Shown here piece by piece: positions 11,961 to 54,922 of a stretch of 64,000 nt of DNA. Under the pieces are notes generated by a model. The model made no database searches, was not told the DNA's origin, and saw only the letters and a list, made by a program, of their open reading frames with translations. Positions within the stretch are counted from its first letter, which is position 1, and each line of letters opens with the position of its first letter. This stretch comes from Negaprion brevirostris (taxonomy: Eukaryota), in contig JARDVH010000121.1 in NCBI GenBank assembly GCA_030324005.1, positions 31,112,595 to 31,176,594 on the forward strand, given 5' to 3'. The translations under genes and the position numbers were made by a program.

Positions 11961-13264
11961 ACCCTTTTATCCATGAACTGCTGCGTAATCTGAAGGGGTT
12001 TAAATACCGGATTAGAAAATTTCCACATAAGTATAATCCAAGCAGAAAATATTGTAAATTAGGGGCTAGTTTAATTATATAAATGGCAGGCATTGTTAAT
12101 GTTCACAAAAAGTACTGCCAAAGAATGATGAATGTTAAAGTTATAATTGAAAACTATGGCAGCCCAGTGTTAAACCCTCATGAAAACATTTTAATTGATA
12201 AACGTTAATTGAATAATCAGGGGCTCAAAATGGTGTCTGTCACCATAGTTTAGGAAAGGCTTTTAAATGTCCCAGGGGAATATTTGCCTACAAAAAAAAT
12301 GATACAAGCGTGATGTTCTAAAGCAATCAAACAATGAAATTATAAATCCATTCAGCTAAAATTGGAGAACAAAAACAACACCAGAGCACTAACCATGCTG
12401 CTGATTTCTACCACAAAAAGGAAATTAAAATGACCAGTCTATTGTATTTGTTGAAAGCTCCTAACATGCAAGCAAGAGTGATATTTCACAGAAATGTTTC
12501 ATGCCAGTATGGCAAATAGTTCAAATAAGATTAGATTGTATCAGTTTAAACAAGCAATAAAGTTAGACTGACCTGTAAAAGTGATGTTTGGATCGAACAT
12601 AATTTTTAGTGACAATATTACCCACTCCATTCCTGGAGTATGTTTAGTAAAAACATGCTATGGTGGTAGATACAGTTTTAAACAGGGCACATTACAAATT
12701 ACTTGCATTAAAAGTTAGTTTTATTAAAATACAAGTTTTGCATCTTTTTATCATCAGTTTCTGATCCGAGCATGTAAATGGAATTTCCTTCTGTATGATA
12801 TTTAGAAGTAGCATGCAGTATGCTTCTACCAAAGGACCAACTTCTATACACAAGAACTCATTAGTTTATATAACATCTGTGCAACTGACAAAATACAATC
12901 GTGTGCATAGATCACAAAATGGCTCCCTTGCAAAGTAAACCTTTGTGAACTGCACAACATAGCAGGATACCATTCTAGAAGCACAGAATGCTTAGCAAGG
13001 CACTACAGGGAACAACAGGAAGAAAGTCAGTAGGTTACTTGTTTGTGTAGATTACTTGCCTTCAGAACAGGATATCTGCTGAGGATTTAAATTAACTGTG
13101 ACAATGGTACTCAACTGAAGGGACTAACAAGTGATATGTATTGCAAGTCAGCATGGGACTGGAACATTTGTTATTGAATTTAAAGTTGAATGACTAGTTT
13201 AAATGTTCTCAAGAGACCATAAACTCCTCATACACTTCTTGGGTCATCTGGGTCCTTGGTAGCC

Positions 13265-14795
13265 ATGATGTGGAGATGCCGGCTTTGGACTGGGGTAAGC
13301 ACATTCATTCAGTTCCACAACACCAGGTTAAAGTCCAACAGGTTTATTTGGCAGCGCTAGCTTTCGGAGCCTCAAGCTCCTTCTTTGGGTGAGCGAGAAC
13401 TTGTGTTCACAAACAGGGCATATAAAGACACAAACTCAATTTATAAGATAATGGTTGGAATGTGAGTCTTTACAAGTAATCATCATTCTGCACTTTATCA
13501 CAAGCCCACGGATAACCTCACAATGCTCCACTTCTCCAGCTTCCACCCTAAACACATGAAAGAAGCTACCCCCTACGGACAAGCTCTCCATATACACAGG
13601 ATCTGCTCAGATGAGGATGACCACAACATACATACAGATGCTGAAAGCTGCCCTCGTAAGAACAGGATATGGTGTTTGACTCATCAATTGACAGTTCTGA
13701 CACGTCACAACGAAAAACCGCACGGAGCTTCTCAGAAGAGGAACATGGGACGTGGCAGACAGGATACCCTTCGTCGTCCAGTACTTCCCCAGAGTGGAGA
13801 ATTATGACATCTTCTCCAGAGCCTTCAAAATGTCATCGATGAAGATGAACATCTCGCCAAGGCCATCCCCACACCCCCACTTTTTGCCTTCAGGCAACCG
13901 CACAACCTCAGATAGACCATTGTCCACAGCAAACGACCCAGCCTTCAGGAGAACAGTGAGCACGACATCACACAACCTTGCCAAAGCAACCTCTGCAAGA
14001 TATGCTAGATCATCGACATAGATGCCATCGTCTCACACGAGAACACCATCCACCAGGTACACAGTACATACTCTTGCAACTCGACCAACCTTGTCTACCT
14101 GATACGCTGCAGGAAAGGATGTCCTGAGGCATGGTACATTTGGAGACCATGCAGAAGCTACGACAATGGACGAATGAACACTGCTCAACAATCNNNNNNN
14201 NNNNNNNNNNNNNNNNNNNNNNNNNNNNNNNNNNNNNNNNNNNNNNNNNNNNNNNNNNNNNNNNNNNNNNNNNNNNNNNNNNNNNNNNNNNNNATGTGAT
14301 CGGCGCAACTTGTGGGCCGAAGGGCCTGTTTGTGCTGTAGTGTTCTATGTTCTATGTTCTATGTTCTATGTTAGTGTTCTCCAAGATGACCTTCATGACA
14401 AACAACGCAGAATCGCTGAGCAAAGACCGATAGCCAAGTTCTGCACACGAGGACTGCCTCAACTGGGATCTTGGGTTCATGTCACACTATCTGTAACCTC
14501 CACGACTTGCCTGGGCTTGCAAAATCTCACTTACTGTCCTGGCTGTAGAGAATACACATCTCTTTAACCTGTGCTTAACCATCTCTCCACTCACATTGTC
14601 TGTACCTTTAAGACTTTATTACCTGTAAAGACTCGCATTCCAACTGTTATCTTGTAAATTGAGTTTGTGCCTTTATGTGCCCTATTTGTGAACACAAGTC
14701 CTCACTCATCTGAAGGAGGAGCTCGAGATTCCAAAAGCTAGTGTTGCCGAATAAACCTATTGGGACTTTAACCTAATGTTGTGAAACTTCTTACT
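13265..14795 (+). mobile_element. Penelope-like retroelement (5'-truncated) with inverted pseudo-LTRs
   Basis: Degenerate frames encode LHFSSFHPKH..PYGQALHIHRICS (RT C-terminal region), DRIPFVVQYFP and SCNSTNLVYLIRCRKGCPEAWYI..ETMQKLRQ (GIY-YIG). 13320-13480 is the reverse complement of about 14615-14785. The 13-bp direct repeat gtccttggtagcc flanks it (13252-13264, 14796-14808). Confidence 0.85.
14294..14371 (+). mobile_element. CR1-type 3' tail nested in the Penelope endonuclease region (5' part hidden in a gap)
   Basis: gggccgaagggcctgtttgtgctgtagtg(ttctatg)4. Confidence 0.75.
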
Positions 14796-15329
14796 GTCCT
14801 TGGTAGCCCCAGGACCAGGGACCCTACCAACATAGGCGTTGCCCGATTTCTAAACATTACGTCTGAGGTACTGATGAAGTGCTTTCTAAGAGAACTTTAG
14901 GATTAGCCTATCACTTGATGTGATCAAAAATACTCAAAAGCAACAATTATCACCTTAAAGTAGAAAATAGCACAGAAAATTTTTCCATTGCTTTATCGTC
15001 AATTACAGAGGCAGCGCTGGTTTCAACAAGTCCTTAGGTGGTCTGGAAATCATTTATAGTATAGAACATGGACTCCAATTTAACCTGAAAATAGACTGTA
15101 AAAAGATAAGCTCCTGGCTGAGTTTAGAAGAGATGAGATTTCAAAATATGCGTAAATAATTCTGCTCGACAATTTCAGTTCCTTTTATTATTGGCCCTGG
15201 AGCATATCATTTAAGCTCGCAATAGCCTTCATCACTGCTTACAACGGAATTGAAACGTTCAGAGTAGCAGATTAAAACAAACAATATGAAGAATTTAGAA
15301 ATTTTATTTTAGAAAGGAACGTGGCTGTC

Positions 15330-21016: not shown

Positions 21017-24000
21017 TTCTAATATTGTAACACTGAGGGATCCAAACAAAACAGATGGAAATTCCCTATAAATTGCATTGTAAATGAATATATCCAAAAT
21101 TCAATGGAATAGGAATTAATGAATTCAGCATGCACCCTCAAGCAACAATTTTATATTCAGATCAAACAAGCAACTGTTAGCCCCTGTATGTGATGCATAA
21201 CAATTTCAAAAATATGCATAAAAGTGCAACTATAAAACATTTTCTAGCACATGTATATATGGCTCAGTCTTCTCCGGGAAAGAAAAATCAGAATCCACTG
21301 TCACAGGAGGTCAGTAGTGTCAATATTACAAACCCCAAACAAACAAATGCTCCGCTGATTGAGCTGTCTTTTTTCTCAAATTAAGAGTTTGGTTTCTTGG
21401 TAAGGCACACGGCACAATTCAGACGCTCTGCTTGAAGTGTTTGAGCGGTCTGCAAGCCTAATATAACATACACATCCTCTTGCTGCATAGCTAGTTTCTC
21501 ATTTGCATATCACCAGGATGCTTAATGGGAAATAAAATGAATGCTTCTTAAACTTTTGGAGCCTAACAGCTGAAGCACAACTATTAGGTACAGTAGAACT
21601 AAGCAAAGTTCACAGTCTTCCAATGGTTCCATTACCAGGTTTATATTAGCAGCATTTCTGGAGAGCTGATAGACCGTGTACCAATGTTCTGTGTATGTTG
21701 TGCACCAAAATGTTTTCATTTATGAACAGAGATTGCTTTCAACTAATCCATTTAAAAGAAACAAATCAGAATGTTATCCAATTCATAAAAACTAAAACTA
21801 AACCATAAGCTTAATTTACTTCATAAAAACCAATTGGAATCCAACAAAAATAAAGCCCCTTCACCTAAAATGTACAAAATGAATAGCAACTATTTTAGCA
21901 GCCCAATTGTACTGAAATGCAATATTAAAAGGTTGCTGTATTTACATCCAAGAAAATCCAAACCAACAATTGGGGGCTATGTACCCAGCCTAATTTCACA
22001 ACAGAACTGAAAACTGACCTTGTACTCATCTCAAAAAATTGCCTGAAATTTGACTTCTACGTACACAATTTCTTCCCAGGGTACAGGACTAGGTCATTAA
22101 TAGACAGCATTCCTTTCATTTGTGCATTATATACAAATTGCCATTCCTACACACTATCCTTGGTCAGTTGTCTCTTGAAATGTAGGTTAGATGATGCCAA
22201 GAGAACAAAAAAAATTCTTCCATAGTCTCACTCAACTGTTGAATTCCATTTGAATGTTACAATAATCACAGTTCTGTTCATTCTGTCCTTCCCTCAAAGA
22301 ACAGCAACTTAGTGCATTTCATTACTGTAAATTTGATAAATTTTGAATCAGTTGTAACAAAAAGTTTGAAACTTCTAAACACTCTTNNNNNNNNNNNNNN
22401 NNNNNNNNNNNNNNNNNNNNNNNNNNNNNNNNNNNNNNNNNNNNNNNNNNNNNNNNNNNNNNNNNNNNNNNNNNNNNNNNNNNNNNGAAACTTCTAAACA
22501 CTCTTGGTCCCTGCCAAAATGACAAATCAAGGTGAGTTGAGAAGCTCAGTTCTTAAGAGTTAATCAAAATGCAACACAATCTTCATAGACTAAATAAAAT
22601 ACGTTATGAATTTTAACAATTAGGATTTCCCCCTCCGGGATACTGCAAAGATGGCAAGTTCAGTAAACAGATAGTCTTCAACAGAATTATTGATTTAATC
22701 TTTCAGCTACATAAACTGCAACATTTGTTTAAAACTAAACATTTTAAATGTAGCAGAACAATGCATCAGAAAAATTCAATTCATGGAATTTCACCCAATG
22801 CAACAGATTTAAGCATAGCTGTGGTAAGCATTACTTATTCTAGTACATTAAAAGTTAGAACTGTTAATATACAAACACCCATCAAAAAATGGGTATAACA
22901 AACGTGGCTGCAGGACAAGTACAACTGCTAGATTCGCTGCAGGCAAAAAACATGCTGAGAGTTTGGTAAATATTGAGTATGACTATAACAAAAATGCACT
23001 TGTACATCTGCCTCTTTTGGGCTGTCTATTAGCAAGGTTTCAGCAATAACTTTGCTACTAACAGCTAGCACAAGGAGACGAGCCAACAGTTTAAAGTGGA
23101 CAGCACTTGTCAACTGTCGTTCAGCATTGCTTCCAGCTAAGAAAGCTGAACTCAGTAGGAATGTTCAAATTATAAAAATCTGCACACCCTATACTCTGTC
23201 AAATATATAGCATCATTTTCAAAATCAAACTTTGGAAATTCTTCCTTAACTGGTTCATTAAAGCTTTGTTCTTTTGAAAGATGTCAGCTAGAGTACTCTG
23301 TAATCAGTAGCCTATAAAAATATTCTTCATCCAATGAGCATTTTAGTTTAAACACTTAAGCATTTCCATTCTTCTGTAGATCAATATTTTGCTTATTGTT
23401 AAATTAATTACATGTACACATCTCCAGACAAGAACATTTGTTTTCAGAATCTGAAAATTCCACAGCTTGAACGGCTGTTAAAACGAGACATCACTATGGT
23501 ACATTGCTTCAGTTCCTGACTTGTTACCTTGTAATTATCAATGTTTCACCTGGGGAAGGAGGAGGCCCAAAGATCACTCAGTCTGTCATTTGGGAGAATC
23601 AAGAAACTTGCATAATTAACCTAATGAAACATCAGAGCATATCATATGCTCAACAGTGCATCTGCCCACCCCCCCACCACTAAACTTTGATCTTATGGAA
23701 ACACGGTCTAAAATTGAACAAAGCAAACATAGATTACTTTTAAAAATTGTGAATTTAAACGTGGTTTAGTACCAAATTTCCACTTTGCGTGTTTTCAATT
23801 TTTAAAAAAATACACAAAATGCACTTCTGAAACATTAGTAGACCTGGTACGACCAGCATGCATTTGTTGCAGTTTGCCCAGTCTGAATGTGAAAAGATTC
23901 CCAAGTTATATTCCAACAGTGCATCAATTGTCTGCCAGGTAGCACTTGTGGTCTTACTATATGATAATCCAACACTGCACTGTGCAACAGGCAACCATAT

Positions 24001-30472: not shown

Positions 30473-32932
30473 CTGTCCATACAAAAAAAATGTAGACTAG
30501 AAGAATGATCGACAATCTATTTGTATAAATATTTGTATACATGTGGAATAATGATGATGATCACTCTGTACCACTGTAGATTTTGGGGATTTGTTGTGTC
30601 TTGAGGCAAAATGAGAAATGAAAAACACCTCAGTAAAAATGCTCAAAAGGTGCAGCATTTGTTCCATAAAATTTTCCCTGCATAACACTGAATGAGCAAA
30701 TTGTTCCAGAGAGATAGCTTGCTTAAGAAACTACCCAACAAACCCCCTAAATTCAGCAACTTTTCCAGACCACAGAACTCTGGCTGATCCTTGTTCCACT
30801 GCCAGATACAAGAAACACATCTTAAATTACACAAAACTTTTCAACCATGTCCTCTAAAGCTGGTATTTATAGATAATGAACAAACAGCAAAGCCACATCA
30901 ACCAATGCTATTGTTTGAGTTTTATCCTGAAAATCTTCCACTTCTAGAAGGTGGGAACAGTTGCTGAGCAACAATAATCAGTTTTTCATTGTGTCTGACA
31001 CCATCTCTGTGCCCTGCATGTGTCCCAAGTAACATAATGACCAGAAAAACAGCAGGAGAAATGATCCTGTTAAAAATTCAGGATAAGATGTCATTAGCAT
31101 TTCTGATATGCCAGGGCCCTCTCTGGCTACTACGAGCCTCGGCATGACTACTTGTCAGCTTTCATTGTCATCAGTGCTGGCAGCCCACAAAAAGTGCAAG
31201 ACTGCAAGTATGAATAAATTGCATTAAATTAAAAGCCACAAGCTTGATGTGTTTCTCCAGTAGCATCACACTTGTCAGGCATGATTCTTTAAGCAGCTGG
31301 TTTTATTTTTCAGACATCAACCAGCAAGTCAGCCAAGATGGAAAGGCATCACCTTGATAGGGACAAGTGATGCAAAAAAAAACAAGAAATGAGTGGCACC
31401 AGAACTTTGTCTCCTCTGGCAAAAAAAATCAGTGTGATGAATAAGCAGTGATTGGAAACATCATGGGCTAATCAAGTTTGCTGAGTGTAATGCATTTCCC
31501 ATGTCACTCCTGATCTTCCATCCAACACACTCGTCTGCCCCAGAGAATGCTGTCACAGACCAAGACCTGTTCTGTAATTCAAAGTGCTCGAAGATACTTT
31601 GGGCTTGAAGATATTTAGTGTTTCCTACTGCCTACATCAAGCGTAAAGTGAAAACTGGATCAGTGACACCTTCTCATTCAAAACCCATTTCCACTGGAAA
31701 AGGAGCTAAAGATTTAGCAGAGCAATTATGCCTGCAGTTTACGTGCTAACAGCTTTCAATCCTGCCACACTAAACATCCCAGCATTAATTTAATCTGAAT
31801 CTTCATTTAACCCATCGCATCTGCACATCAATAATTGACTTCAAACACAATTAAAAATCAGCAGTTTGTAGACAAGATCAGAGGAAACCCATAATGAGGT
31901 TACTCGTCCAAAGCAGATGGTGTTGTCAGAAGTTCAGCCCATGTAAACATTCCTTCACTGTGTACATGTTCTGTCTGTTCAAACAAACCTTACCAGTGAT
32001 ATTTTAAAGATTCTATCAAAAGAAGCCCAAATTGAAGAGGTTGGTCTATAGCAGGTGATTGAAGCACTCGTTTAAAGTCAAGTTAGTTGGCCAGAAGCAT
32101 AAATAGTAATTTTTCAGTAATTGTGTTTTTGAGAGGGTTGGCACGCTTCAAATGTGCGCGGTTGTGTTTGTGCACGAGATAGTGCATGCGTTTTCAAATA
32201 AAAACCTGACGCAAGTGAAAGAATAGCTAGTGCAGAGGGTTGGTGACATTACAAAGTATAAAATTATTGATCTGCTAAACATCTAAACTTAAAAAATAAT
32301 TTCAAGATTGCAGACCTTTGGATGGGGAAGGCTTAAAATGAACATTTGGACCCAGTAAAATATGGGTGTTCTTTTTGTCCCCACTTCCCTTATGCTCTGA
32401 CATCTCTGGGGACGTGACTGTCACTCATTTGGTTCATGTGACCCAACCATGTGAACTGAAGAGAGGATGGTTACATCCCCAAAGACATGCTCTATGGTTT
32501 ATTTGCTACTGGCATAAGACCAACAGCTTGGCCACATTTGATACAAGGATGTCTGCAAACAAGACCTCTCAAGTTGATCAGGATTGAAATTGATGCATAG
32601 GAAATCCTTGCTGCTGAGACAAGCAGTCAAAGTGCACAGAAAAAGCACAGGACAAAATAAATAACCAGATGGCAAAGAGCTTATCAGCTGACCTTGGGGC
32701 AACACAAGGGACTGCCATTCACATTCAGATGCTGTCCTACCCAGAAGTGACATGCACATCTTGAGTGCAGTCCATTGCCTCCCAAGATGGAGGGACACTA
32801 TCCCGTGAGCCTTTCCCTATATGGAGCACTATTTCAAAAGTGTAAAGCCTCAAGCTACAAGATATGTAATAATTTATAACACTGATCAAACTGTAAAAAT
32901 GCATTTAGACAAGTTTTTAAAAGCACACCTAC

Positions 32933-34784
<1,852 letters not shown>

Positions 34785-35079
34785 TTAAACATAGCACTTC
34801 AATGGTTAGAATGTACTCATTAACTTACATCCAGATACAGACTTTGTTAAAAAATGTCACAAATTACATTAGCAATTTAAAATCATATCTCTAATTAGTT
34901 TAAACACCATTTCAGTCTTGCACACTTTGTCCCTTTGCGAAGGACAGAAATGTTAAAACATCACATGAACCAGAAACTCTCAAAGAAAACTTCACTACTA
35001 AAATAGTTTGCTGTGGTGGTTCAGAGAATGGATTGACAGTGAGGCAAGAGGGTGAAGAATAGACTAAGCTCTTCTTCTC

Positions 35080-35650
35080 CAAGGAGATACAAGCTCAGCT
35101 TCTCATCAATCCACATCTCCCTAAAACTATTCCTATAGATCTTTCCTGCATCCTCTCAAAGCCTTCATATCTGGTGCTATTCCCATTTGAGATCAAATTA
35201 GTATTTTATTAAAGGTTATCAGAACCTCCTTGCTTTTGTATTTGATGCCTTGTGAAAATGGTTTAAAAGGCGTATTTCTCAACAAGCCTTCCACTTTCAA
35301 CAATTTGCACATGCATACCCAGGTATCTGTTGCTGTACTTCTTCCAAATTGGGTCTACTTTTAGTCACTGCCTCTCCTCATCCTTCCTACCACTGGACAG
35401 GTCATTGCACTACATTTCATCGTGACTGCCCATTCCAATTGCCCGTCTATTTGTTCATGAAGTTTACTGCTATCCCCCTCAGTTCACAACATATACATTT
35501 TATGCCACCTGCCAATTTTAACATCTACTCTAGTACATACATACGTAGCAATGGCCCTAGTGCTGATCCTCTGGGGAACCCCACTATATACCTTCCTCCT
35601 GTGTCATACAAGCATTCATGATTTACCATCATTCAAATTTCATGTTGATG
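35080..35650 (-). mobile_element. Old CR1 RT fragment
   Basis: aatggccctagtgctgatcctctggggaaccccact encodes a SGVPQ.SALGP motif on the minus strand. Confidence 0.5.
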
Positions 35651-35990
35651 CAACCACTTTAATTATATCAACTTCAAGTGTTTGCTTTTCAGATTTTCTT
35701 TTTCACTTACCCTCTGCTGAATATTTTGCTTAGTACTCACTTATATAATCAGCTAGACATCTATTAGATGCCATCTTCAAGTTAATGAACAGGTAAAGCA
35801 AAATGAACAAAGCCTGAGATAAACACCAAGATAAGGCAAAATACTACCAACTCTGAAAGGATCACCTAGACTTGAAACATTGGACTCTACTCTCTCTTGA
35901 CGTGGAGATGCTGGTGTTGGACTGGGGTAAACACAGTAAGAAGTCTCAACATCAGGTTTAAGTCCAACAGGTTTATTTGGTGGCACACGC

Positions 35991-36025
35991 CACTAACTTT
36001 CAAAGCGCTGCCCCTTCATCAGGTG
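35991..36025 (-). ncRNA. Minimal type I hammerhead ribozyme motif (Penelope-associated), core intact
   Basis: Minus strand reads CAC CUGAUGA A GGGGC AGC GCUUU GAA AGUU A GUG: stem I CAC/GUG, core CUGAUGA..GAAA, stem II with GU pairs and a near-palindromic stem III. Confidence 0.65.
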
Positions 36026-36407
36026 AGGGAGGGTTCTGTTCACAAACAGGGCATATAAAGACAAAATCAATTCACAAAATAATGGCTGGAATGCAAGTCT
36101 TTACAGGTAATCAAGTCTTAAAAAAAGGTACAGACAATGAGTGGAGAGAGCATTAAGCACAGGTTAAAGAGATGTGTATTGTTTCCAGACAGGACAATTA
36201 ATGAGATTCTGAAAGCCCAGGCAAGTTGTGGGAGTTACAGATACTGTGACATGAACTCTAGATCCTGGTCCGGGATCTTTAACCTGTGCTTAACCTTCTC
36301 TCCACTCACATTATCTGTACCTTTAAGACTTGATTACCGGTAAAGACTTGCATTCTTTTGTAAATTGACTGTCTTTATATGCTCTGTTTGTGAACTGAAA
36401 TCCCACT

Positions 36408-36441
36408 CACCTGATGAAGGAGCAACGCTCCAGAAGCTAGT
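36408..36441 (+). ncRNA. Hammerhead motif with mutated GAAA box
   Basis: CAC CUGAUGA A GGAGC AAC GCUCC AGA AGCU A GU. Confidence 0.5.
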
Positions 36442-37579
36442 AAACCTGTTGGACTTCAACCTGGTGTTGAGACTTCTTACTTTATTCTCTCTCCACAGAT
36501 AGTTAAACTTGCTGAGATTTTCCAGCATTTTGTATCAGGTTCCAGCATCTGCAGTACAGAAATGTACTTAGACTATAACTAACTAAAAGCAGCTTATTGT
36601 TACCGTGGTGCTCTGATGACCAATCTTTTGATTTCAATTTGTCTGGGATAAGTCTATTCTCACCCTACCGAATATAGCCTTGGCTGTTGTCCCTGATTAA
36701 CCAAATTACGATCACTGATAGCTAGATATTCCCCGACTGACATTTGATCCACCTCATTCCCCAGAACTGCATCCAGAAGTGTCTCCTCCCTCACTGGGCC
36801 AGCAACCAGTCAAGAAAATTCTAAATACACTTGTCCCTTGCGTTATTTCCTATTCTATGTTACAGTAATAGAGGTCTTTCTTATATTGACACCTTCAATA
36901 TTTTAGCTAGCAGACTAAGAAAAACTTTGGCGATATATATACACCATCACGCTATTTTATTTTACAGTAGCCAGAGTTACTGCTACCTACTTCAGAACTC
37001 CAGAGTAGTAAGCCCATTATGAAGATAGGAGATTAAAGTTAAATGGACAAGTTTTCCTCTCTAGTCCATGATATCTTCTCAGATGGAATTGGCTGAGTCT
37101 GACACTAGCCTCCTCCCTCCTTCAGAGGAAATCTGACCCCTGCTCATTAAGGAATGTGTCAACCAACTAAACTTACTACCATATTCCCCAAGTGCATACT
37201 CAGACACATCATGAATAGAATTAGCCCACTTATACTTACTAACATGTTTGTATGGCCGCCCAGACTAGATAATGATTTGTTTAATATTGCTGTTCATTGT
37301 GTTAGCCTCCACAATGCTTGGTTCATTAACATTTTAAAACCTTCAATCAGTAGTTATTTTAAAATCTATGGAAATTCAGTGTTTTAATAAAACCTAGCAC
37401 TGAAGCTTCCCAGACCCTAGTGGAAACAGAAAATGAAAGATTTCAAAATGTGACGTCAGGGGCAATGCTGTAACTCACTAATTAAAGACTGGTTATCCAA
37501 TAATCATGGTGAGGGGGAAAGAAACAAGTAGATGGGGGAAATAAGTGGAGGAGGAAAACAAAAAATCAGGTTACGAGTA

Positions 37580-38549: not shown

Positions 38550-38798
<249 letters not shown>

Positions 38799-40767: not shown

Positions 40768-43562
40768 TCCTACTGTAATATCTGAACTGATATGTAATAA
40801 TAACTAGTTTGTTGTCCAAGTTAAAAAGAATGAGTCAAAGATGCTTCTGGCTGAATCCTGAAAATCTATTTGATCAAATGCCTTGTAGCATCAATGGTCT
40901 GCAAGTTAAGGAAAACGTTGCTGCCTTCGAAGAGACAGGAGTACATACACCAATACATTTTAAAAATCCCAGGGTGCGCATCTTTAAATTGTCATTCCTG
41001 GGGAGAACGATGGTTTATACTCTTCCACCTTCAGAACATTCAAAAGATATTAAAAGAGCATCATTCTCAGTAGTAAACTAAACCCAAATAATATTGCTTT
41101 TGGAGTCAAGGATTTGATGTGAATGTTTGCACATGTACTAGCCATCTTAATTTGTCATTGCAAAAAAAAAGTCAGTTGCAAACTCAAAACCACTGATCAA
41201 AAATTAATTTCAACCTTTTCACTGCCCCACTAGAGCAACACATTTCTAGCCCTTGTACATTAAATGCAGAACTATCTGATCTATATCCACATGAAACAAG
41301 AGGGTCCTTGTCCAACTTGAAAGTAGTTGTACTGTTCATCATTGTCAGGCAGGCTTTTTTTTAAAAAAGGAGGTACCGCACAGCGCATGGGGAGGCGATC
41401 ACATTTCATCCAACTGATTGCTGCCATGTGACCATAATGAGCTTCCAGCTTCAAAACTATTTTCATGTTAAGCACAGCAGTTTGTACAGTAGCCCTTCAA
41501 CCAGAAGTATCTCAATTACACCACAACTTCCATTGTGAAGTGAGATTATTCTCTCACTGGCAAGAGATGAAAACAACCAGTTATAAAAGACTTCTTGCAC
41601 GACTGAAATCAGATATTCAAAAAGTGTTTTTCCATATGTGCCACATAGCAAACCTATCTGCATCAGACATGAGATTATCCTTTCTACCAATTTAATGAGA
41701 TAAACAAAATAATCGATGCACCATACAAACAATTGCAGACCGGTGGTGGCAGCGGAATCATCTATAGCACGAATGGCTAAAACCATTCAAAATACGAGTT
41801 GCATTGTGGCTGGATATGAATCTCACCAGAGAAACATTAAATAGTTTGAGAGATATAGGGCACAGCGGCCTCAAGGTTTTGACACAAAGAGGATTTGGTT
41901 AAGATAGCAAAAAGCAGGAGGGACCACTTTGCTGAAATGTCTTGTTTAGCATCACTAGTGGGGCAGTGAAGCCACTGTTAAATACCATACCCTACCAACT
42001 AGACCACTAGCTTCAGATTTTGGTGAAATGACCACCATCACACTTTCACTCACCCACTAACAATCCCCATCAATTACAACCTATATTTTAAATTCATTAC
42101 CACCACCACCTTTGTAGCCAAATGTCACAGCTTGTAGACTACACCAGCTACTCAAACATCTCAGCGTGGACTGCACAACTCCTCTTATGAGAAGATGGTG
42201 TATAACCAAAGTAACCCAAAGCATATATCCTTAATCCCATAGAGACAGCTACTGGACAATGAGCAGATTTCCACCAAAAAAATCAGCAACCTCCCATCAG
42301 CCATGCAACCACCAGCAGACCCATTATGCATAGTAACATTAAAGATTTTAAAAAGTACAAACAAGATTATCAATTTTTGTATGGCATAGTTTTAATTCAT
42401 AAATTTGCTTTGGAATGTTTATTTTGTGCTCCCTTTTATTTTTGCACTGTGGCCAAGCCAATATTGTGATGGTCAGTGGCAAAGACAAGTTGAGATGTGA
42501 ATAAAAAACTGGGAATGCTGGTTCTGCTATTTAAGAAACGTTGTAGAGATAAACCATGGAACTATAGACAAGTGAGTCTCACATCAGTGGCAGGGAAACT
42601 ATTGGAGAACATTCAGGAGGAGAGCATCTATTGCCACTGGGAGGCAAAGCTTGTTCAAGGATAGACAGCATGGCTTCAGAGGGAAGTCATGCCTAATAAA
42701 TTTGATTGAAATTTTTAAAGAGGTGACCAGATGTGTAATTGAGGGTAGTGCAGTCAATGTAGCTGATATGGATTTCAACAAAGCCTTTGAAAAGTTCCCA
42801 AAGAGCAGACTTGTAAAGAAGGTAAATGCACATGGGATTCAGGGTAGTTTGATAAAGTGGATTCAAAATTGGCTCAGTTGTAAGAGACAGAGGGTGATGA
42901 CAGAGGCTGCTTTAGTGACTGGGAAGCCAGAGTCCAGTGATGTTCTGGGCCCCTATTATTTGTCTTTATATAGATGACATATGAGTATGTGGGTGTAGAA
43001 TTAGCAAATTTGGGGATGACAAAGATTGACTGGGTGGTTAACAATGAGGCAGAGGGTCTTGGGCTACAAGATATAGACCAAATGGTCAAAACTTAACCCT
43101 AAGTAGTGTGAGGAGACACACTTTGGAAGGATTAATTTGACAGTCAGTGAATGGTACTACACTAGAGTAAATACATAAGGTTACAGGGATAGGGCCTAGG
43201 TGACATTGTGGTCGATGCAGGCACCAGCGGGCCAAATAGCTTCCTTCTGCACTGTAGGGATTCTATGATTCTTAGTGTGTTTGTCCACAGATCCCCGAAG
43301 GGGGAAGGATACGTTAGTAGATGTTTAAAAAGACCAATGGGACACTTGCCTTTATCAGTTGAGACAGATTACAAAACCAGGAAGTCATGCTGAAGTTGTA
43401 TAGAAATTTGGTAATAGAATACAGTGTGTAGGCCTGGTCGCCACATTACAAGGAAGGTTGTGATCGCACTGGAGAAGGTGCAGAGGAGATTCACCAGGGT
43501 ACTGCCTGGGATGGAACATTTAAGTTACGAAGAGGGGTCTGGTAGGCTTGGGTTGTTTTCAT

Positions 43563-43790
43563 TGAGACTTCTTACAAGACCAGGTTAAAGTCCAACAGTT
43601 TATTTGGTAGCAAATACCATTAGCTTTCAGGGCTCTGCCCCTTCATCAGGTCAGCTCGCCAGACAAAAGGGGCAGAGCCCTGAAAGCTAGTGGCATTTGC
43701 TACCAAATAAAATGTTGGACTTTAACCTGGTGTTGAGAGACTTCTTACTGTGTTTACCCCAGTCCAACACCAGCATCTGCACATCATGAC
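43563..43790. mobile_element. Minimal fold-back Penelope-derived element nested in a CR1 LINE
   Basis: ccaggttaaagtccaaca...tagctttcagggctctgccccttc is mirrored by aaggggcagagccctgaaagctag...gttggactttaacctgg. It interrupts CR1 sequence at gttttc(a/g)ttg. Confidence 0.85.
43618..43652 (-). ncRNA. Minimal hammerhead ribozyme motif, core intact, stem I mismatched
   Basis: Minus strand reads GAC CUGAUGA A GGGGC AGA GCCCU GAA AGCU A AUG. Confidence 0.55.
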
Positions 43791-46417: not shown

Positions 46418-48293
<1,876 letters not shown>

Positions 48294-54595: not shown

Positions 54596-54922
54596 CATTT
54601 TTCTAATTGGGATGTGGATGTCACTGGCTATGCTAGCATTATTACACATCCATAGCTATAATTGCCCTCAAGATGACAATGGTGAGCTGCCTTCTTGCAC
54701 CAAAAAATAGACAATGCTGGAAAATCTCAGCAGGTCTGACAGCATCTGAGAGAGAATAGAGCCAATGTTTTGAATCTGGGTGACCCTTCATCAGAGCTAG
54801 GATCAGCAAAAAAAAAAAATCACTATCTGCAGAATTTTGCTTTTTGCCTTCGTGCACCACTGCACACCCTGTGGTGTAGGTACACCCAGTGCTGCTAGGG
54901 AGGGAGTTCTAAGATTCTAGCT
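54596..54922 (-). mobile_element. LINE 3' end fragment (related copies near 11850-11920 and 52575-52735)
   Basis: gggatgtggatgtcactggcta..aattgccctcaagatg..ggtgagctgccttcttg and gtggtgtaggtacacccagtgctgctagggagggagttc are split by an insertion. Strand is inferred. Confidence 0.5.
54702..54848 (-). mobile_element. Second-family Penelope-like 3' end inserted in a LINE fragment
   Basis: Minus strand CTGATGAAGGGTCACCCAGATTCAAACATT..cagatgctgtcagacctgctgagattttccagcatt. It matches the host sequence at 35851-35897 and 36483-36555. Confidence 0.55.

Follow-up and report, generated by a model that had tools for sequence, protein, structure and literature searches.

A truncated Penelope-like retrotransposon insertion with decayed hammerhead motifs in a ZNF217 intron of Negaprion brevirostris

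The ZNF217 locus and its intronic insertion

The window analysed here (the whole stretch of 64,000 nucleotides from Negaprion brevirostris) carries the gene ZNF217 on its minus strand, with coding exons at 48195-46413, 38780-38643, 34775-32910 and 26521-26417. The exon open reading frame at 48219-47140 is 96% identical to ZNF217 of Mustelus asterias. The assembly of the window is gappy (13 runs of N, one of them within the insertion A13 described below), and three N runs lie in the ZNF217 coding sequence (34498-34597, 47126-47135) or near repeats.

The insertion studied here, named B36 (35896-36481), sits in an intron (38643 to 34775), some 1.1 kb ahead of the acceptor. This host intron is bordered upstream by the exon at 38643-38780 (minus strand, 95.7% in tblastn with P0008) and downstream by the exon at 32910-34775 (minus strand, 87.5% in the same search, including an N gap). 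The initial annotation had placed the element in a ZNF217 intron with its better preserved hammerhead motif sense to the pre-mRNA, and both points hold, the gene and this motif being on the minus strand. An AAUAAA followed by GU-rich sequence is also present in B36 (35977-35972, minus strand), sense to the ZNF217 pre-mRNA and partly in duplex; it is a possible cryptic intronic polyadenylation signal.

Structure and boundaries of B36

B36 contains two inverted arms (35930-36170 and 36276-36486) that are identical at 182 of 204 aligned positions, i.e., they differ by 22 substitutions (11%) and by several indels. The minus strand of the insertion folds with a predicted energy of -319.7 kcal/mol (z -26.5), and none of 100 shuffled sequences was equally stable. 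The fold-back structure announced by the initial annotation is thus present; its location (given as 35898-36482) is right as well, except for the start, which we observe at about 35896.

The insertion is flanked by a TSD of 14 positions, with a left copy at 35884-35897 (plus strand, CT-rich, overlapping the element end by 1-2 nt) and a right copy at 36479-36492 (plus strand). The two copies are identical at 12 of 14 positions, a score matched by one of 300 random window pairs; they are degenerate and low in complexity. The TSD sequence is present once in an uninterrupted copy of the host repeat at 54796-54707. Contigs of the family depart from the insertion sequence at 35898 into unrelated flanks, with 989 loose ends in the run X18 and 1393 in X19 (agreement 0.35). 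One X19 contig crosses the left junction of B36 with 0 substitutions; X19 being possibly the source of the window itself, this contig speaks only against mis-assembly. An X19 contig matching 35700-35925 without substitutions carries nine extra letters past 35722.

The left arm belongs to a longer, direct copy read on the minus strand. From its 3′ end, this copy comprises a 37-nt PLE 'tail' (35896-35932), found on the left arm only, then a 3′ UTR/pLTR (35933-36234) that aligns, at 79.9% identity across 343 columns, with the 3′ terminus (14466-14797) of A13, a sister insertion that carries an ORF, and finally the last codons and stop of a PLE ORF (36235-36270). The encoded end, DQDLEFMSQYL*, resembles those of A13 (NWDLGFMSHYL*) and of the protein P0004 (NRDLGFMSHYM). 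These matching C-termini identify the 105-nt 'loop' between the arms as the ORF end and the 3′ UTR start of the longer copy. The element, previously described as non-coding, is therefore nearly but not strictly so. A near-palindrome of the form 9+1+9 (8 of 9 pairs), read directly from the sequence, marks the head-to-head junction at 36260-36278. Past this junction, the inverted copy omits about 90 nt; according to the arm comparison, it is a 5′-truncated copy without tail (36270-36481, plus strand). The ORF end in the loop leads us to read B36 as a 5′-truncated direct copy (minus strand, 36270 to 35896) joined head-to-head to a shorter inverted copy (plus strand, up to 36481).

Two other origins of this structure were considered and rejected. 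An assembly artefact is ruled out by the TSD, the split host repeat and the 11% divergence of the arms; a MITE derived from a DNA transposon is ruled out by the nature of the arms, which are retroelement 3′ ends, by the ORF remnant and by the one-sided tail.

The flanks of B36 correspond to an older repeat, the 5′ half of which (35851-35897, plus strand) is 81.6% identical to 54796-54749 and the 3′ half (36480-36535, plus strand) 79.3% identical to 54761-54707. Once one TSD copy is removed, the joined flanks align with the uninterrupted repeat at 54796-54707 (minus strand) at 74 of 86 positions. On this alignment, B36 is nested inside a second repeat, whose halves form its flanks. The 5′ half carries a decayed hammerhead-like motif of its own, which reads CUGAUGA-A-GGGUC...GAUUC-AAAA in the copy at 54794 (minus strand). 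The repeat possibly represents a pLTR from a different PLE family; it has no ORF linked to it. A further partial match is located at 53837-53792.

Sister insertions and assignment of the family

Six related arms were detected in the window. They form three insertions, B36, A13 (13265-14795) and C43 (43560-43790), so that the six copies counted by the initial annotation are confirmed as arms but are not six independent copies; one extra match, at 23547, is unrelated. A13 consists of an inverted pLTR with tail, the 3′ part of a broken ORF (linker and GIY-YIG region) and a pLTR without tail, and is bounded by a perfect TSD of 13 bp (13/13, at 13252 and 14796). C43 is a very short fold-back with the tail on its right arm only, located in the next ZNF217 intron upstream of that of B36; its candidate TSD is weak (10 of 12 positions, as good in 16 of 300 random pairs). 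TSDs are an optional trait of PLEs. An inverted 5′-truncated copy producing inverted repeats is present in 3/3 insertions, as is a one-sided tail of about 37 nt, and the junctions and lengths differ among all three. At the end without tail of the C43 left arm (43560-43575), the terminal pLTR segment has undergone a small local inversion, and the left arm of A13 (13300-13315) has, just before the tail, a 10-nt segment that differs from the other arms. Another inverted pair, with 36-nt arms (81%) 617 nt apart, is present at 390-1078 of the window and does not match the B36 family.

In the sequencing runs, 29,567 contigs of X18 and 42,284 of X19 match the family, numbers which are not a copy number. 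The family letter fractions given below are depths of contigs from four of 22 sequencing runs over 35700-36275 (left flank and left arm). A>G counts in these contig sets are taken as family variation and were not counted as editing.

Of 43 candidate proteins, 6 match residues 105-225 of the A13 ORF (translated with X at stops); among the full matches, P0002, P0004 and P0005 are the closest (68-77% identical; Mustelus, Heptranchias and Scyliorhinus). All four scanned relatives give an RVT_1 match, two of them above the cut-off; the E-values for P0002, P0004 and P0005 are 4e-6 to 3e-10. One of the four, P0002, also shows a sub-threshold GIY-YIG match (E-value 7.6e-4). A Pfam search of the broken A13 fragment itself (P0001) returned no family, and a PDB search with P0004 no match. 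An ORF combining RT with a C-terminal GIY-YIG, as in EN+ PLEs, is reached through A13 and its relatives, and the end of this ORF is present in B36. Pieces of the PLE ORF also occur in P0003 (NOXP20-like, Mustelus) and P0007 (septin 5a, Scyliorhinus), where they are either exonised element sequence or gene-model errors.

The linker of the A13 ORF carries a CX4CxxC motif (CQSNLCKIC, and CHSNLCKTC in the relatives). In the available text of PMC8557442, a CX2-5CxxC linker is a mark of Neptune and Nematis PLEs, and Neptune and Poseidon are found in vertebrates according to the accessible part of bioRxiv 10.64898/2026.07.22.740005. The family of B36 probably belongs to the Neptune clade, an assignment made from one linker motif that is shared with Nematis. 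Like Neptune, the family has an RT followed by a CX2-5CxxC linker (here CX4CxxC) plus a GIY-YIG-like region at the C-terminus; it differs from Neptune in that the microsatellite target bias of the latter is not seen here.

The hammerhead motifs

Each arm of B36 contains a hammerhead motif, at 36025-35991 (minus strand) and 36408-36441 (plus strand), outward-facing and exactly where the initial annotation had located them. The minus motif, with a predicted scissile bond after 35994, is a minimal type I hammerhead decayed by the changes C16.2U, C11.2U and C11.1U. Its core had been called intact. This is correct for CUGAUGA and GAAA but not for the rest: AGUU replaces AGCU, which makes the cleavage triplet UUA, and G.U pairs make up three of the five in stem II, 10.1-11.1 among them. 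The AGCU stem III attributed to the motif likewise exists at the family level, C16.2 being found at 84-96% of depth in the four runs (position 35996), but not in the B36 minus copy. At position 11.2, this copy has U where the family has C at 0.95-0.98 of depth, and at position 11.1 it has U where C reaches 0.30-0.59. The plus motif, antisense to ZNF217, is broken by G12A and A13G (the GAAA to AGAA change already reported) and lacks 17 nt immediately 3′ of the cut site. Of the marks of an active hammerhead, the minus motif has lost the G10.1-C11.1 pair (G.U) and the palindromic helix III (AGUU), and the plus motif carries G12A. The link proposed to minimal type I hammerheads of PLEs is well founded, with, at the family level, the CUGANGA/GAAA core, the extra base after A9 and the palindromic 15.2-16.2.

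No enrichment of the bare CUGAUGA..GAAA pattern is seen in the window, with 2 matches against 1.22 expected (34 of 100 shuffles reach 2). A full descriptor that adds stem II pairing and the cleavage triplet to the core is passed by two of the six arms and yields two hits, both on the minus strand (36022 and 43649), for a mean of 0.065 in shuffles, one in 200 of which reached 2. Rfam gave no hit at the gathering threshold over the whole window, and no hammerhead at E-values up to 10 over 35800-36600, where two chance hits (E-values 4-5) were obtained. The loops of the two A13 arms measure 5 nt.

Two-sided changes affect one of nine pairs in the six arms from three insertions (one of five in stem II), a count reached by 421 of 500 shuffles, and the covariation score of the same arms is reached by 106 of 500 shuffles; in these arms covariation does not exceed the shuffled controls. 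Among the 40 of 72 family variant positions listed, none falls in CUGAUGA or GAAA, which suggests that the core is conserved across the family. The CpG spanning C11.1 and the catalytic G12 is altered in five of the six arms, as would be expected from methylation-driven decay; the two C43 arms may have inherited their change together. A 5-bp hairpin starts at the cut site in B36 (35993-35980, minus strand, GUGGC...GCCAC) and in C43 (43690-43703, plus strand, GUGGC...GCUAC), while the A13 type lacks it. This hairpin would compete with the hammerhead fold, since it uses the 3′ strand of stem I, and could be an off-state in one subfamily.

Predicted folding and RNA-level consequences

We used an equilibrium folding model that does not include hammerhead tertiary energies. 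In this model, the probability of stem II does not exceed 0.002 even for the minus motif alone, and imposing the hammerhead fold costs 5.9 kcal/mol for the isolated motif, 11.2 when it lies within the direct copy and 41-45 within the insertion; there, 88-95% of the bases of the minus motif are paired to the other arm. During transcription of the ZNF217 pre-mRNA, the antisense arm is made before the sense motif, and competing complementary structures are described as blocking ribozyme assembly (PMC2817708, as far as its accessible text goes). The intronic self-cleavage envisaged by the initial annotation is unlikely for the B36 copy, which is mutated, sequestered and devoid of a tandem partner: the AGCU palindrome and two G-C pairs of stem II are lost and the motif is buried by the antisense arm. 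Most likely, the sense motif does not cleave in the ZNF217 pre-mRNA. This is a prediction from folding and sequence, not a measurement, since the hammerhead of Poseidon from Anolis carolinensis (PAc) cleaves only with its protein.

The other consequence put forward, a dsRNA hairpin of roughly 200 bp, agrees well with the folding, which predicts 192 long-range pairs with uninterrupted helices of up to 27 bp. Inverted repeats in introns form long duplexes that are substrates of ADAR. By analogy, incidental editing of the B36 duplex is plausible, and an incidental intronic duplex of about 190 bp is likely to be the sole RNA-level consequence of the insertion.

Origin of the insertion and alternative explanations

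Taken together, these data indicate that B36 is very probably a dead-on-arrival insertion of a high-copy EN+ Penelope-like retrotransposon, probably of the Neptune clade, with hammerheads that are decayed passengers. Rather than a dedicated fold-back non-coding element, as first proposed, it corresponds to an insertion pattern already published for PLEs. In the available text of PMC8557442, an inverted 5′-truncated copy gives rise to inverted repeats, and a tail of 30-40 bp is often found at one end only. The accessible part of PMC3846280 describes inverted pLTRs with TSDs of 8-10 bp and palindromes at the inverted junction, interpreted as self-priming. The PLE protein of Anolis cuts both strands and extends them, with two RT start sites that bracket the tail, and the PAc hammerhead, which requires the protein for cleavage, is dispensable for insertion in vitro (PMC11167929, available text). 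Following this published work, the GIY-YIG of the element would have introduced nicks in the two strands, offset by about 13-14 bp; reverse transcription would have begun at the pLTR 3′ end, on one side with the tail and on the other without it, and halted early, and the two products would then have been joined head-to-head. The hammerhead would have been carried along in the pLTR and been of use, if any, to the source element.

Could the sense motif nevertheless work as an active or co-opted ribozyme and cleave the ZNF217 pre-mRNA, whether by itself, in a dimer or with the help of the PLE protein? The motif has CUGAUGA, GAAA and a UH triplet, its stems I and II are formally able to pair, it is sense to the transcript, a second descriptor-passing motif occurs on the same strand (43649), and the PAc hammerhead is protein-assisted (PMC11167929, in the text available). 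We consider this reading extremely improbable in view of the loss of the family letters at 16.2 (84-96% of depth) and 11.2 (95-98%) and the pairing of 88-95% of the motif bases with the other arm. Furthermore, the motif at 43649 is 7.6 kb off, beyond an exon and within its own hairpin, while in the published parts covered here single min-HHRs did not cleave and dimers cleaved little (PMC4209133), and no read ends were reported at the PAc cleavage site (PMC11167929). It is highly improbable that the duplex itself has a host function, be it ADAR editing, small RNA production, ZNF217 splicing or intronic polyadenylation. Its 192 predicted long-range pairs and helices of up to 27 bp, and the presence of a second fold-back (C43) in the neighbouring ZNF217 intron, would fit such a role; yet with 22 substitutions and several indels between them the arms do not look as if their pairing had been maintained, insertions of this kind arise abundantly as by-products, and incidental editing is not a function. 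Being short, nearly non-coding and bounded by a TSD, B36 could also be a member of a non-autonomous fold-back family copied as a unit, MITE-like or as a retrozyme-like PLE derivative; the family is abundant and non-autonomous pLTR derivatives are published (bioRxiv 10.64898/2026.07.22.740005, accessible part). This is very unlikely, since the three insertions of the window have three junctions and three lengths, and the contig depth drops steeply toward the B36 junction. In addition, the 15 of 75 joints listed occur in 1-3 contigs per run and are scattered, with none at 36270 among them, and retrozymes are described as head-to-tail tandems whereas B36 is head-to-head.

Within the preferred reading, a dead-on-arrival PLE insertion, there remains the question of the template. 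A copying of the two arms from two RNAs of two subfamilies is a tentative idea that we regard as rather unlikely. The letters of the two arms are opposite at 36012, 36151 and 36152, three sites at which the family is near-evenly split (in each of the four runs, the other letter makes up 0.46-0.64 of depth); at all three, the right arm is of the A13 type. Two templates would explain these sites. At eight of the listed sites, all covered by both arms, the left arm deviates from a clear family majority (0.68 or more in each of the four runs); at seven of them the right arm carries the majority letter, and at the eighth it carries a third one. Against two templates, a 2-nt gap near 35948 is common to both arms when set against the sister copies; this gap and the snap-back-like palindrome of the junction point to one template. 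Moreover, the sites were chosen after the fact, and gene conversion or recurrent mutation could also have produced them. If the idea were true, PLE inverted ends would arise by twin priming on both nicked strands and not by snap-back self-priming, and one RNP would hold two templates. Pairs of this kind are numerous in shark genomes. The B36 locus itself matters little, being a single decayed member of a shark retrotransposon family with many copies. The family, whose thousands of TSD-bounded inverted insertions bear diagnostic subfamily letters, could separate self-priming from two-template priming, and could serve to build a deep alignment of a shark PLE hammerhead that escapes Rfam.

Comparison with known systems

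A search of titles and abstracts in the accessible literature found no paper on a shark PLE hammerhead or on the B36 family. The minimal PLE hammerheads (Cervera and De la Peña 2014, PMC4209133) are located, in the text available, in PLE pLTRs, including pairs on opposite strands 100-700 bp apart; their monomers do not cleave and dimers do so little, and no shark example was found in the text and two supplement files. The B36 family shares with them CUGANGA, the extra nucleotide between 9 and 10.1, G10.1, the palindromic 15.2-16.2 (AGCU, at the family level), a short helix I and the lack of a real helix III. It differs by a helix II of 5 bp, and the B36 copy by the change of C11.1, C11.2 and C16.2 to U.

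Non-LTR retrozymes (bioRxiv 10.64898/2026.07.22.740005), reported in one chondrichthyan in the accessible part, are similarly derived from pLTRs, non-coding and equipped with a type I hammerhead. They are built as head-to-tail tandems, each unit having a hammerhead on one strand, whereas B36 is a head-to-head pair, and we found no direct repeat family of at least 20 nt in 35000-37500. Poseidon of A. carolinensis (PAc; Frangieh et al. 2024, PMC11167929, available text) supplies the likely mechanism, with a one-sided tail and priming on both strands. It belongs to a different clade, and the PAc ORF begins in stem II, whereas the core AUG of the B36 family reaches a stop within nine codons.

The closest likeness is with the insertion units of EN+ PLEs (Craig et al. 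2021, PMC8557442; Arkhipova et al. 2013, PMC3846280), which, in the portions of these papers available, combine truncated direct and inverted copies, a tail at one end, a junction palindrome, a TSD and a pLTR hammerhead, as B36 does. Compared with these units, B36 is extremely truncated (about 12 codons are left) and nested in another hammerhead-like repeat, and its TSD, like that of A13, measures 13-14 bp instead of the 8-10 bp of the rotifer examples (PMC3846280). Within the published text covered here, every structural feature of B36 is already in print for the PLE class.
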